Shown here one piece after another: positions 7,592 through 61,427 of a stretch of DNA of 64,000 nt. The notes beneath the pieces are model-generated. The model did no database searches and was not told the DNA's origin. It saw only the letters and a list, made by a program, of their open reading frames with translations. Position 1 is the first letter of the stretch. Each line of letters starts with the position of its first letter. A program made the position numbers and the translations under genes. The stretch comes from Escherichia phage 308Ecol101PP. Location of the stretch: sequence record OR062945.1, one strand, 5' to 3'.

Positions 7592-8218
7592 ATGTATACT
7601 TTTAATGAATTTTTAGCCGAAACGGAAGTAATCACCGAAGCCGGTGTACGTATGACAAAAGAGAAATGGCAAGCTGCTTACGATGCTATTTCTGGTACAA
7701 AAACTAGTACAGAGTTTTTCAAAAACGTTCAAGCCATGTATGGTATCGACACTTCCAGCCAAAAAGAATATTACAGAGCTTCTAAAGCATTCAAAGATAT
7801 TGTTAGTGGCGGTGTTTCTGCTAAATCGGGTTCGCCTAAAGTAAAACCTGCTCCTACCGTTCCTAAACCTGCGACCCCTAAAGCAATAGCAAAACCTGAG
7901 CCTAAGCCGGAAGTAAAAGCAACTCCTAAAGCTCCTGCTCTTAAGTTTGATACTTCTAGCCTGGAAAAAAAATATAAACAACTATCTTCGCTTGTTCGTG
8001 ATATTGAATCCGATACATCTTCACTCGTTCGTGAATTCAACAGTCTTCGTAATGGCCAACATATCAACAACCTTGATACCCCAGACCTTTATCGTCTTTA
8101 TTTGACTATTGAAGGTTTGAAGTACACTCAACCACTTCATGATGAGATTAAAGAAAAACTTCGTCAGGCAGGTCGTTTGGCTGCTGACGCTGCTCAGTAT
8201 GCAAAAACTCGTAAGTAA
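7592..8218 (+). CDS. Capsid-targeted protein with Pro/Lys-rich linker
   Basis: Starts MYTFNEFLAETEV (CTS-like); PKVKPAPTVPKPATPKAIAKPEPKPEVKATPKAP low-complexity linker; TATAAATA late-promoter motif at 7549. Confidence 0.7.
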   Translation: MYTFNEFLAETEVITEAGVRMTKEKWQAAYDAISGTKTSTEFFKNVQAMYGIDTSSQKEYYRASKAFKDIVSGGVSAKSGSPKVKPAPTVPKPATPKAIAKPEPKPEVKATPKAPALKFDTSSLEKKYKQLSSLVRDIESDTSSLVREFNSLRNGQHINNLDTPDLYRLYLTIEGLKYTQPLHDEIKEKLRQAGRLAADAAQYAKTRK

Positions 8219-9789: not shown

Positions 9790-9812
9790 GGAGGACTCCG
9801 GTCCTCCTTTTG
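9790..9812 (+). terminator. Rho-independent terminator
   Basis: GGAGGAC-TCCG-GTCCTCC then TTTTGG. Confidence 0.65.
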
Positions 9813-11924: not shown

Positions 11925-11963
11925 GTTTACAACAAGATAGGGCTATGTTATAGTAGTCCTATC
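11925..11963 (+). promoter_or_regulatory. Early promoter stem-loop cassette (PeSL-like)
   Basis: GTTTAC; IR GATAGGGCTA / TAGTCCTATC. Confidence 0.6.
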
Positions 11964-13215: not shown

Positions 13216-13253
13216 GTTTACAAGGTCTGTAGTTGTTGATACTATAGACCTAT
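13216..13253 (+). promoter_or_regulatory. Early promoter stem-loop cassette (PeSL-like)
   Basis: GTTTAC; IR GGTCTGTAG / CTATAGACC. Confidence 0.55.
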
Positions 13254-13282: not shown

Positions 13283-13483
13283 ATGACTACTTTGAATAAA
13301 CGTTTCGGTAAAGCTAAACCTGGCTGTGCAGCAGAACGTCGTTACATTTTCGCTCAGTTAGAAGATGTAGAGTATCAGATTAATCAAGTTCACATTACTG
13401 GCATCGAGCCTATGTGTGGCCTTGAAGCTCTTCGTGAAGTTCGTGACGGGTATCGTCGTGATATCGAAGAAATGTCAAAATAA
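13283..13483 (+). CDS. Hypothetical protein
   Basis: Promoter cassette 13216; SD GGAGA before ATG 13283 (alternative start 13262). Confidence 0.55.
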   Translation: MTTLNKRFGKAKPGCAAERRYIFAQLEDVEYQINQVHITGIEPMCGLEALREVRDGYRRDIEEMSK

Positions 13484-13522
13484 GTGTACAAACTGATAGG
13501 GCTATGTTATAGTAGTCCTATT
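13484..13522 (+). promoter_or_regulatory. Early promoter stem-loop cassette (PeSL-like)
   Basis: GTGTAC; IR GATAGGGCTA / TAGTCCTATT. Confidence 0.55.
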
Positions 13523-15026: not shown

Positions 15027-15259
15027 GTATAGCAATTTACATTAAATCAGAATCATGTGATAGTTATCTGTACACATACGATAAAGACGTGTCAGAAGAA
15101 AAAATCAAAGACGATCTTAATATGGACCTTGATATGTTCTGTCCTATTGCAGATTACAAACTTGCGGTCTCTAATAGTGAAAGTCCATCTAAAGAAACGC
15201 GCATTGAAGAATTTATGTCCGAATTAATGGCTAAATCATGGGACCGAGATGATGAGTAA
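15023..15259 (+). CDS. Hypothetical acidic protein
   Basis: ATG 15023 after GAATGCAGGAA junction (alternative start 15008). Confidence 0.55.
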   Translation: MSIAIYIKSESCDSYLYTYDKDVSEEKIKDDLNMDLDMFCPIADYKLAVSNSESPSKETRIEEFMSELMAKSWDRDDE

Positions 15260-15707
15260 GAAAAATAAAGTGAAAGAACTATCAGCCGGTATTATTTTCC
15301 TTACCGAAGATAAAGAATTATTCATGGGGCGTGTAACTGGTTCTCGTCCTAAAGGTTCTTTAGCTCATCGGTGGGATATTCCTAAAGGTCGTGTCGAGCC
15401 CGGTGAATCTCCTATCGAAGCCGCTATTCGTGAATGCGAAGAAGAAACTGGGTTTACACAATATGACCCTGCCTTCCTGAAAGACCTAGGTGAACATCAT
15501 TACTCAGACAATAAGAATATTCATCTGTTCCTATATACCATCCCTGTAGAGCACGAGCAATTCAGAAACAGTGTTTGTAATTCCTATCATACGTTCCCAG
15601 ACGGACGACAGATTCCTGAATTTGATGCATTCGCTTTAATTAAACCTTCTCAGTGGGAATATGTAATGGGCAAATCATTATATAAGGTGCTCACTACCAT
15701 CCTATAA
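15249..15707 (+). CDS. nudE: Nudix hydrolase NudE
   Basis: Nudix box GRVEPGESPIEAAIRECEEETG; position immediately upstream of lysozyme as in T4. Confidence 0.85.
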   Translation: MMSKKNKVKELSAGIIFLTEDKELFMGRVTGSRPKGSLAHRWDIPKGRVEPGESPIEAAIRECEEETGFTQYDPAFLKDLGEHHYSDNKNIHLFLYTIPVEHEQFRNSVCNSYHTFPDGRQIPEFDAFALIKPSQWEYVMGKSLYKVLTTIL

Positions 15708-15709
15708 GT

Positions 15710-15739
15710 AATAAATACCTCCTATAAACGTGGGAGGTA
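15710..15739 (+). promoter_or_regulatory. Lysozyme RBS-sequestering hairpin with embedded late-promoter-like AATAAATA
   Basis: TACCTCC (15716-15722) pairs with GGAGGTA (15733-15739), which contains the lysozyme SD GGAGG; 7/8 match to TATAAATA at 15710-15717. Confidence 0.45.
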
Positions 15740-15741
15740 TT

Positions 15742-16230
15742 ATGAATATATTTGAAATGCTTCGTAATGACGAAGGTCTTAGACTGACTTTATACAAAGA
15801 CACTGAAGGCTTTTGGACAATTGGCATAGGTCATTTAGTAACAAAGAACCCGTCTTTAGCTGTAGCTAAAGCTGAACTTGACAGAATGATCGGGCGTAAA
15901 TGCAACGGTACAATTACCCTTGATGAGGCTGAAAAGTTATTTAATGAAGACGTTGATAAAGCTGTTCGCGGAATCTTGGGTAATGTTAAACTTAAACCGG
16001 TATATGATTCTTTAGATGCGGTTCGTCGATGTGCATTGGTCAATATGGTCTTCCAAATGGGTGTAGCAGGCGTCGCTGGTTTTACTAATTCTCTTCGTAT
16101 GCTTCAACAGAAACGTTGGGATGAAGCGGCAGTAAATCTAGCACAATCTAAATGGTATCGTCAGACACCTAATCGCGCGAAACGCGTAATCTCAACATTT
16201 AAAACAGGAACTTGGAAAGCGTATATATGA
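15742..16230 (+). CDS. e: Endolysin (T4 lysozyme e)
   Basis: [32 protein letters not shown]...[27 protein letters not shown]: near-complete match to T4 lysozyme. Confidence 0.95.
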
Positions 16231-22806: not shown

Positions 22807-23019
22807 ATGCAGCAATTAAACGAAAGACAACTTCGTAATCTTACTGTAACCCAATTGGATGAAATCCGAAGAGAATTAGGACATTCTATTTCTCATTTAA
22901 ACGAGGATATCCGTCAAACTGGTTCTAAAGCTGATTATACACGCAAGCGCAAGCTGGAAAAATACCTCACAGATGTTAAGGCCGTCCAAAGGCGAAAAAT
23001 AAATACTGGCCAAAATTAA
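22807..23019 (+). CDS. Hypothetical protein
   Basis: SD GAGG; TATAAATA motif at 22775. Confidence 0.55.
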
Positions 23020-23031
23020 CAGGAGGCCTAT

Positions 23032-23334
23032 ATGGCCTTAAGAGCGATAGCTGTCATGGCGATGCTGGGGTTTTTTGCAGCAACAACTCCTATCGTTGGT
23101 ACTGCGTACACTGACCCATATTTTGATAACTTTATGGAATCAGGGATTAAAAACGTATATACTTTGTTTGAAATTCAAAATGTCGAGAATTCTGAAAAAT
23201 TCTATAAGTATATGGCAAAGCATTACAAAAATAGCCCCTGTGATGATGCATTTGAATGTCATGAACAAGGCATAAAAACTGCCAGACAATTTGCCGAGTT
23301 CATGAAAATAAAATTAGAGCCTACATCTATCTAA
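23032..23334 (+). CDS. Secreted/periplasmic small protein
   Basis: Signal-peptide-like MALRAIAVMAMLGFFAATTPIVGTA; followed by terminator 23341. Confidence 0.6.
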   Translation: MALRAIAVMAMLGFFAATTPIVGTAYTDPYFDNFMESGIKNVYTLFEIQNVENSEKFYKYMAKHYKNSPCDDAFECHEQGIKTARQFAEFMKIKLEPTSI

Positions 23335-23379: not shown

Positions 23380-23431
23380 GTTTACTTCTCCTCAGGTTGT
23401 GTTATAGTAGACCTTACTTACTAGAGGAGAA
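23380..23431 (+). promoter_or_regulatory. Early promoter stem-loop cassette
   Basis: GTTTAC; TTCTCCTC / GAGGAGAA IR; -10 TGTTATAGT. Confidence 0.55.
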
Positions 23432-34137: not shown

Positions 34138-34168
34138 TATAAATACCCTTATCTAATATGGTAAGGGT
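34138..34168 (+). promoter_or_regulatory. Gene 49 late promoter TATAAATA plus hairpin sequestering the gene 49 ribosome-binding site
   Basis: TATAAATA 34138-34145; inverted repeat ACCCTTA (34145-34151) / TAAGGGT (34162-34168) whose 3' half contains the SD AAGGG. Confidence 0.5.
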
Positions 34169-34173
34169 TTATT

Positions 34174-34647
34174 ATGTTATTATCTGGCAAATTATACAAA
34201 GAAGAAAAACAAAAATTTTATGATGCACAGAATGGTAAGTGTCCTATTTGCCACCGTGAATTAGACCCTGATGTTCAAGGTAACCATCTTGACCACGACC
34301 ACGAATTAAACGGGCCAAAAGCAGGTAGAGTTCGTGGGTTACTCTGTAATCTGTGCAACGCAGCAGAAGGCCAAATGAAGCATAAGTTCAACCGTTCCGG
34401 TCTTAAAGGACGTGATGTCGACTACCTCGAATGGCTTGAAGCTCTTCTTGCTTATTTGAAACAAGATTATTCTGATAATAATATCCATCCTAATTTTGTT
34501 CCAGACAAAACTAAAGAGTTCTCAAGACTAGGTAAAGAGGAAATGATGGCTGAGATGCTTCAAAGAGGATTTGAATATAATGAATCTGATACCAAAACAC
34601 AATTAATAGCTTCATTCAAAAAGCAGCTTAGAAAGAGTTTAAAATGA
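34174..34647 (+). CDS. 49: Endonuclease VII (Holliday junction resolvase) gp49
   Basis: MLLSGKLYKEEKQKFYDAQNGKCPICHRELDPDVQGNHLDHDHELNGPKAG...; near-identical to T4 gp49. Confidence 0.95.
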   Translation: MLLSGKLYKEEKQKFYDAQNGKCPICHRELDPDVQGNHLDHDHELNGPKAGRVRGLLCNLCNAAEGQMKHKFNRSGLKGRDVDYLEWLEALLAYLKQDYSDNNIHPNFVPDKTKEFSRLGKEEMMAEMLQRGFEYNESDTKTQLIASFKKQLRKSLK

Positions 34648-40362: not shown

Positions 40363-40920
40363 ATGACTGAACAAAAACCTAAAAATAACTATGTGAATAA
40401 TAAAGAGCTTCTCGCCGCTATAATCGAGTGGAAAAAGGAGCTCTTAAATAATAAAGACCCAAACAAAATTATTCGTCAGAATGATACCATCGGTTTAGCA
40501 ATTATGCTTATCGCCGAAGGCCTGTCCAAACGTTTCAACTTTTCAGGATATACCCAGTCTTGGAAGCAGGAGATGATTGCAGATGGGATTGAAGCCTCTA
40601 TTAAGGGACTTCATAATTTCGACGAAACTAAGTACAATAACCCACATGCATACATAACTCGAGCTTGTTTTAATGCTTTTGTCCAACGTATCAAAAAAGA
40701 ACGTAAGGAAGTTGCAAAGAAATATAGTTACTTCGTTCATAATGTCTACGACAGTCATGACGATGATATGGTAGCGTTGGTAGATGAAACGTTTATTCAA
40801 GACATCTACGATAAAATGACGCATTATGAAGAATCCGCTTATAAAGCTCCTGGGGCTGAAAAGAAGGAAGTTGTTAGCGATTCGCCTAGTTTGGATTTTT
40901 TATATGAGGATGACAATTGA
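40363..40920 (+). CDS. 55: Late-transcription sigma factor gp55
   Basis: [117 protein letters not shown]...: near-identical to T4 gp55. Confidence 0.95.
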
Positions 40921-45764: not shown

Positions 45765-45806
45765 TAAATTTGTTATAAACTTTGAATTGTCTTGAAAGGA
45801 AATAAA

Positions 45807-46493
45807 ATGAAACTGTCTAAAGATACTATCGCTATTCTGAAAAACTTTGCCTCTATTAACTCCGGCATTCTGCTGAGTCAAGGTAAATTTATTATGACTC
45901 GTGCAGTTAATGGCACCACTTATGCGGAAGCAAATATCTCTGATGAAATTGATTTTGACGTAGCACTTTATGATTTGAATAGCTTCTTAAGCATTTTGAG
46001 TCTAGTGTCTGATGATGCTGAAATTTCGATGCACACCGATGGCAATATTAAAATTGCAGATACACGTTCCACGGTTTATTGGCCTGCCGCTGACAAGAGC
46101 ACCATTGTTTTTCCTAATAAGCCAATTCAATTCCCAGTGGCTTCTGTGATTACTGAAATTAAAGCCGAAGACCTTCAACAATTGCTTCGAGTTTCACGTG
46201 GTCTTCAGATTGATACAATTGCTATTACAAATAAAGATGGTAAAATTGTTATCAACGGCTATAATAAAGTTGAAGATTCTGGACTAACTCGTCCTAAGTA
46301 TTCTTTGACTCTTACCGATTATGATGGTTCTAACAATTTTAACTTCGTAATCAATATGGCTAATATGAAAATCCAGCCAGGTAACTATAAAGTAATGTTG
46401 TGGGGAGCTGGTGATAAAGTTGCAGCCAAGTTTGAAAGCTCTCAAGTAAGTTATGTTATTGCGATGGAAGCCGATTCTACTCACGACTTCTAA
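45807..46493 (+). CDS. 45: Sliding clamp gp45
   Basis: MKLSKDTIAILKNFASINSGILLSQGKFIMTRAVNGTTYAEANISDEIDFDVALYDLNSFL... matches T4 gp45. Confidence 0.95.
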   Translation: MKLSKDTIAILKNFASINSGILLSQGKFIMTRAVNGTTYAEANISDEIDFDVALYDLNSFLSILSLVSDDAEISMHTDGNIKIADTRSTVYWPAADKSTIVFPNKPIQFPVASVITEIKAEDLQQLLRVSRGLQIDTIAITNKDGKIVINGYNKVEDSGLTRPKYSLTLTDYDGSNNFNFVINMANMKIQPGNYKVMLWGAGDKVAAKFESSQVSYVIAMEADSTHDF

Positions 46494-61376: not shown

Positions 61377-61427
61377 GTTTACTTCTCCAGTAGTTGTGTT
61401 ATTATAGACCTATCAACTACTGGAGAA
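61377..61427 (+). promoter_or_regulatory. Early promoter stem-loop cassette; 14-bp perfect IR
   Basis: GTTTAC; TTCTCCAGTAGTTG / CAACTACTGGAGAA; differs from the 19727 copy by compensatory changes. Confidence 0.65.

Follow-up and report, generated by a model that had tools for sequence, protein, structure and literature searches.

A hairpin with an embedded late-promoter motif at the lysozyme start of a Mosigvirus, and its likeness to the gene e initiation region of T4

Results

Gene content of the lysozyme locus

We analyzed the start region of a T4-type lysozyme gene within a 64,000-nt stretch of DNA from Escherichia phage 308Ecol101PP, referred to throughout as the window. Over 1 kb the region shares 99.8% identity with Escherichia phage ST0 (Mosigvirus, Tevenvirinae), and 135 phage records match a 61-nt region at 99% identity or more. 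The lysozyme gene e follows nudE, an order common to the window, T4 and RB69, and the window also encodes two components of the late transcription machinery, gp55 and gp45:

15249..15707, + strand: nudE (e.1), Nudix hydrolase gene (Pfam NUDIX, 2e-16; nudix hydrolase in the ST0 and RB69 annotation)
15742..16230, + strand: gene e, T4-type lysozyme (endolysin), 162 aa (Pfam Phage_lysozyme)
15742-15744, + strand: ATG of the lysozyme gene (read from the sequence)
40363..40920, + strand: gp55 homologue, late sigma factor for the TATAAATA-type motif (PHROG 234, 3.7e-68)
45792..46493, + strand: gp45 sliding clamp, late transcription activator (Pfam gp45-slide_C, 2.3e-44, and DNA_PPF)

Residues 1-161 of the gene e product align to residues 1-161 of T4 lysozyme (E = 9e-89), and because this alignment begins at residue 1, the ATG at 15742 is the homologous start. 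The nudE stop codon (15705-15707) lies 6 nt before the first paired base of the hairpin described below, and on gene order and protein alignment the nudE-e intergenic region that holds this hairpin is orthologous by position to the initiation region of T4 gene e. In RB69, the RefSeq record (NC_004928) begins gene e at Met6, giving a product of 157 aa (positions 7674 vs. 7689, record 65673 vs. 65688), while an SD-preceded, conserved ATG that aligns to Met1 of T4 lysozyme is found 15 nt upstream of that start; the RefSeq start of RB69 gene e is therefore probably mis-annotated.

A predicted stable hairpin covers the lysozyme ribosome binding site

From 15701 onward the window reads ...CCTATAAGTAATAAATACCTCCTATAAACGTGGGAGGTATTATGAATATA..., and the following elements were located in it, the two heptamers by sequence and the rest by folding:

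15716-15722, + strand: TACCTCC
15733-15739, + strand: GGAGGTA
15714-15725, + strand: 5' arm of the hairpin, holding the anti-SD CCUCC (15718-15722)
15726-15729, + strand: tetraloop AAAC
15730-15741, + strand: 3' arm of the hairpin, holding the SD GGAGG (15733-15737) and the spacer to the AUG

The first-pass annotation had described TACCTCC as complementary to a GGAGGTA that includes the lysozyme SD, and both strings are found at exactly the positions it gave. The predicted stem extends beyond the one it described, comprising 12 pairs (15714-15725 with 15730-15741), two of them G-U. The hairpin has a free energy of -16.3 kcal/mol and a z-score of -6.35 as a 37-nt segment, with 0 of 200 dinucleotide shuffles as stable, and in an 81-nt context (z = -2.92) the minimum free energy and centroid structures both return the same 12-bp hairpin. 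The fold is predicted to bury everything from the SD GGAGG through the base just before the AUG at 15742. Rfam 15 covariance models assigned the hairpin to no family, the only match being a chance hit to SNORD86 on the other strand (E = 7).

To place this hairpin among the other genes of the window, we calculated an opening cost, defined as the free energy needed to make the SD and AUG single-stranded, for 100 heuristically called genes. The lysozyme gene ranks second, at 16.8 kcal/mol compared with a median of 4.7 (sd 3.4).

Late-promoter-like elements and the number of working promoters

The closest known system is the initiation region of T4 gene e, where late promoters lie within a translation-initiation hairpin (McPheeters et al. 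1986, summarised in PMC3014915). The longer early transcripts of T4 form the structure and lysozyme synthesis from them is about 100-fold lower, whereas late transcripts begin without the 5' strand, and transcripts from either of the two late promoters are well translated (PMC3014915). Similar leaders are described in the same 2010 review for close T4-type relatives, in which the DNA that encodes the 5' strand contains a late promoter (PMC3014915). In the window, we find the following late-promoter-like elements:

15710..15717, + strand: AATAAATA, predicted gp55-type late promoter, an A(-13) variant of TATAAATA (by motif, which is invariant in relatives)
15723..15724, + strand: predicted late transcription start (by motif spacing, with the motif at -13 to -6; PMC1524935)
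15723..15730, + strand: TATAAACG, degenerate copy at the place of T4's loop late promoter (deviations at -7 and -6)
15723-15729, + strand: TATAAAC (by sequence)
15704..15711, + strand: TATAAGTA, octamer resembling a late promoter, with G at -8 and an overlap with the nudE stop codon (by sequence)

Both AATAAATA and TATAAAC had initially been assigned to the loop plus the 5' arm. This is correct for TATAAAC, which covers the upper end of the 5' arm together with the loop, but AATAAATA lies mostly upstream of the stem, with its last 4 nt only falling within the 5' arm, where they form its base.

Among 50 T4 late sites listed by Geiduschek and Kassavetis (PMC2988020), 32 carry the exact TATAAATA and 9 have A at -13, with nearly all of the rest showing a single deviation, and in RB69 and other relatives the -13 base is A or T (Nolan et al., PMC1524935). 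On these frequencies AATAAATA represents the commonest accepted variant. We placed +1 six bases past the box, in keeping with a motif at -13 to -6 (PMC1524935), and with this spacing the accepted, single-deviation box AATAAATA is predicted to start transcription at ~15723, at or beyond the anti-SD arm. The shared heptamer is also strongly associated with gene starts across the window: on the + strand, an SD, ATG and open reading frame follow 20-35 nt after 8 of 9 ATAAATA heptamers (background 4.2%, p = 8e-11), compared with 0 of 6 on the other strand.

Several features suggest that this promoter may score weakly or be weak, namely the A at -13, the lack of any entry upstream of e in the published HMM list of RB69 late promoters (31 sites, 2006), and a C-rich segment at -5 to -1, a stretch that is usually AT-rich in late promoters (PMC2988020). 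Searching the literature for AATAAATA returned poxvirus and baculovirus papers only, and one for modern T4 start-site maps returned nothing usable for gene e.

We also considered TATAAGTA as a working promoter and set it aside: a start at ~15717 would leave the anti-SD arm in the RNA, for which the opening cost is 13.9 kcal/mol, and the octamer is not conserved outside Mosigvirus. It is probably non-functional.

The remaining element, TATAAACG, raises the possibility that two late promoters are active as in T4, with starts at ~15723 (from AATAAATA) and ~15736 (from TATAAACG). In T4 both corresponding positions are occupied by exact TATAAATA boxes whose transcripts are well translated (PMC3014915), and TATAAAC retains 6 of the 8 motif positions. 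However, its two deviations, at -7 and -6, fall in the invariant part of the motif, and more than one deviation is seen in just two of the 50 T4 sites (PMC2988020). A start at 15736 would moreover lie inside the GGAGG of the SD and leave a 6-nt leader without an SD, and no box was found at the TATAAACG position in any of the non-Tequatrovirus versions compared. We therefore rejected TATAAACG as a working promoter and consider use of both elements improbable; TATAAACG is probably the inactive counterpart of T4's second promoter, and AATAAATA alone is likely to be the working promoter here.

Beyond gene e, the rI antiholin homologue (22998-23334, + strand; Pfam Antiholin) carries AATAAATA 26 nt upstream of its start codon, so that a second lysis-timing gene uses the A(-13) box, and a 70-aa, rI.1-like open reading frame preceding rI (22775, + strand) has TATAAATA 24 nt before its ATG.

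Box and stem persist together across Tevenvirinae

For comparative analysis, we took leaders from 54 IMG/VR loci and from named phages, of which the Tevenvirinae ones reduce to 18-19 distinct versions. These cover at least five named genera (Tequatrovirus, Mosigvirus, Dhakavirus, Gaprivervirus and Kanagawavirus), the rest coming from unnamed relatives. In a plain alignment of 18 distinct versions, ATAAATAC, the SD's G residues and the ATG are the only blocks without variation; ATAAATAC itself has an upstream flank that is not conserved, and the -13 base can be T, A or G. In every version the SD is predicted to fold into a local hairpin. Kanagawavirus-type and similar versions use a shifted stem register (CTCCTATC/GATAGGAG) in which ATAAATA is unpaired, yet the heptamer remains invariant, indicating that its conservation is not a by-product of the stem. 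This joint conservation of box and stem through a register shift is the strongest argument that the comparison offers.

Because of these register shifts between genera, aligning the leaders with MAFFT alone leaves the arms unmatched by structure. We therefore counted pairs in SD-anchored pseudo-sequences with arms of equal length, an alignment fitted to the helix whose counts are descriptive only. In it, the core of SD and anti-SD is paired in 14 of 14 distinct rows, with one two-sided change, U-A to C-G, in Gaprivervirus (SD GGGGG with anti-SD CCCC). The covariation score in this helix-fitted alignment is 0.158, compared with at most 0.085 in slid controls, and was reached by 4 of 500 shuffles; covariation is modest because SD and anti-SD are both constrained and hardly vary. 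The two-sided change is carried by Gaprivervirus VR26 (L022, ~1470-1500; L061, ~220-250), where GGGGG stands in place of GGAGG, and represents the family's only clear compensatory change.

These comparisons also bear on whether the complementarity might be a chance match without function. The genome is AT-rich with many TATA-like strings, and TACCTCC is not enriched as a word (6 found overall vs. 3.5 expected, and 2 occurrences on the + strand in 64 kb). Against this stand the stability z-score of -6.35 and the opening-cost rank of 2 among 100 genes, and conservation between genera, with its register shift and compensatory change, effectively refutes a chance origin, to which we assign next to no weight. 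The complementarity at the lysozyme start is real and not a chance match.

Kanagawavirus-type leaders (L011, L012 and L020, ~1455-1509; IME523, L060) contain an additional outer helix, GUCUGUAGG ... CCUAUGGAC, predicted to join the region around the AUG of e to sequence lying 5' of the late promoter. As modeled, this helix would form a second lock that would be absent from late transcripts.

Among more distant lysozyme homologues, from Stephanstirmvirinae and Aeromonas phage Ah1, the arrangement is absent, in agreement with the list of phages lacking the structure in the 2010 review (PMC3014915). A phiAS4 match taken up as gene e proved to be the baseplate gp5 lysozyme and was dropped. Other distant homologues (L039, ~1440-1503; L026-L036, ~1460-1500) have SD-containing stems of their own, ACGCCTCTT...AAGAGGGCGT and TTCCTT AAATAA AAGGAA, which lack a recognisable TATAAATA box and possibly represent independent use of SD sequestration.

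Predicted accessibility of the ribosome binding site in early and late RNA

We next compared predicted opening costs between RNA that reads through from upstream and RNA that starts at the predicted late start. An RNA starting at ~15723 would have lost the anti-SD arm and carry a 19-nt leader. Across 19 versions, opening costs are 10-19 kcal/mol for read-through RNA (about 16.4-17.1 in the window) and 2-7.6 kcal/mol for late RNA (about 5.9-6.1 in the window), and the early-minus-late difference is 7-13 kcal/mol in all 19, with 11.3 for the window, from costs of 17.1 and 5.9, and 11.0 for T4. In the predicted late RNA, the SD still pairs weakly with codons 8-11 (~6 kcal/mol).

A switch of this kind presupposes that early or middle transcripts reach gene e. 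Of the 100 called genes in the window, 97 are on the + strand, and a candidate promoter lies upstream:

13485..13513, + strand: sigma-70-type early promoter-like site (9/12 in a consensus scan, with TG; maps onto RB69 Pe:67959)

This is the nearest upstream sigma-70-type site matching a published RB69 early promoter, and by its sequence and position it is a likely source of read-through RNA; further sigma-70-like sites are found at 13217-13245 and 11926-11954. Published RB69 predictions place early promoters at 67959 and 69254, the former corresponding to ~13471-13521 of the window, and call no terminator on the gene strand between 71382 and 59923. Our own scan of the window found no + strand terminator-like site between 9807 and 18000. 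Together, the promoter and terminator predictions make early or middle read-through into e plausible.

The sole + strand terminator-like site in the 9-18 kb interval is a perfect hairpin, GGAGGACTCCGGTCCTCC, followed by a T-run (9790-9807, both strands), which from its position would be the published RB69 terminator between e.6 and e.5. Elsewhere in the window, a conserved -10 block of early promoters, GTGTTAYTATAGACC, has 8 copies on the + strand (8290, 8851, 13236, 19746, 23399, 26809, 28285 and 61396) vs. 0.23 expected. At least at 61396 and 19746, and probably at 23399, it is part of a predicted hairpin in which the 3' arm borders on or contains the following gene's SD, with opening costs of 18.6, 13.8 and 10.2 kcal/mol, respectively, which suggests that the logic of a proximal promoter unlocking a ribosome binding site extends to early genes too.

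Another reading is one in which the hairpin acts mainly on RNA fate, as a terminator, a protector of the nudE RNA 3' end or a barrier to processing. A stable, G+C-rich stem directly after the end of a gene would suit such a role, but the stem is followed by no U-run (its tail is AUGAAUAUAUUU), the site is absent from the terminator-like list of the window and is not called a terminator in RB69, and in every relative, including those with shifted register, the 3' arm is the SD itself. We regard a role of this kind as highly improbable, and sequestration of the SD in read-through RNA as the preferred reading.

Likeness to T4 and RB69

The base sequence between the nudE stop and the AUG is identical in RB69 and the window. 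At the corresponding junction T4 reads TATAAATACCTTCTATAAATACTTAGGAGGTATTATG and the window AATAAATACCTCCTATAAACGTGGGAGGTATTATG. The two share the nudE-e gene pair and the SD-spacer-AUG segment GGAGGTATTATG, being identical from there onward, and in both the anti-SD arm sits directly downstream of the ATAAATA box, so that RNA from the predicted late start would lack the 5' arm. The spacing from stop codon to stem is nearly equal, and the predicted switches are comparable in size. In contrast, the stem of the window has 12 bp and a tetraloop and is slightly more stable, compared with ~10 bp and a loop of 8-10 nt in T4; the upstream box has A rather than T at -13; the window has one base fewer between boxes and SD; and in place of the second, loop-borne TATAAATA of T4 the window has the degenerate TATAAACG.

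A ribosome that terminates occupies about a dozen nucleotides beyond the stop codon. The closeness of the nudE stop codon to the stem, with 6 nt before the first paired base, would therefore allow the footprint of a ribosome ending there to reach past the stop and unwind the base of the stem, in which case the hairpin could be leaky, with some lysozyme made from read-through RNA and the promoter motif secondary. The nearly equal spacing in T4, where early RNA nonetheless gives ~100-fold less lysozyme (PMC3014915), argues against this reading, which would also leave the invariant ATAAATAC unexplained, and we consider it quite improbable.

Discussion

Together, the sequence, fold and comparative results make it likely that this site is the gene e initiation region of a Mosigvirus and that it operates as the T4 orthologue does. 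Early and middle RNA from upstream sigma-70-type promoters would run through nudE into e, and in this read-through RNA the 12-bp hairpin would pair CCUCC with the SD GGAGG and close the spacer to the AUG, blocking 30S binding so that no lysozyme would be made from early RNA. After the onset of replication, RNA polymerase modified by gp55, gp33 and gp45 would read AATAAATA and start at ~15723, producing a late RNA whose 19-nt leader is without the anti-SD arm, whose SD would be free, and from which lysozyme would be translated late.

It had been proposed at the outset that the locus mirrors the T4 gene e arrangement and that temporal lysis control is probably conserved. Orthology, the co-conservation of motif and stem, and the predicted switch bear out the likeness, although the two promoters of T4 are not mirrored, and the comparative data support the conservation of temporal lysis control as in T4 gene e. 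The timing device itself is an ordinary one, long known from T4, and published predictions extend it to T4 relatives; the gene e leaders of RB69 and other Mosigvirus phages are in principle covered by Figure 5 of the 2010 review (PMC3014915).

A second example of this logic is found within the window. The initiation regions of T4 gene 49, soc and I-TevI belong to the same class, in which a late promoter lies in the hairpin. The gene 49 (endonuclease VII) homologue of the window (34174-34647, + strand) has an exact TATAAATA at 34138-34145, directly followed by an SD-sequestering hairpin, CCCTTATC...GGTAAGGG, with an opening cost of 13.6 kcal/mol. Gene 49 and gene e thus share the logic, whereas the genes and stem sequences differ and gene 49 keeps the exact consensus box.

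The departures from consensus at gene e invite a further, tentative idea, which we think possible but doubtful. The -13 base is A or G in 14 of the 19 versions, and the segment at -5 to -1 is C-rich because the anti-SD forces it to be. Outside Tequatrovirus, the switch might rest on a single, systematically sub-consensus late promoter, selected to be weak and strongly clamp-dependent so as to set the dose and timing of lysozyme, with the second box of T4 being a lineage-specific reinforcement and the Kanagawavirus-type outer helix an independent tightening.

In practical terms, the analysis gives a predicted late start at ~15723 and the correct lysozyme start codon at 15742. Many Mosigvirus phages are in use or considered for therapy, and where lysis timing or payloads are engineered beside gene e, 15710-15741 should be kept intact. 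Beyond annotation the finding matters little: a textbook device against endolysin translation from early read-through RNA appears intact in Mosigvirus, and among its promoter boxes only the upstream one is the conserved part.
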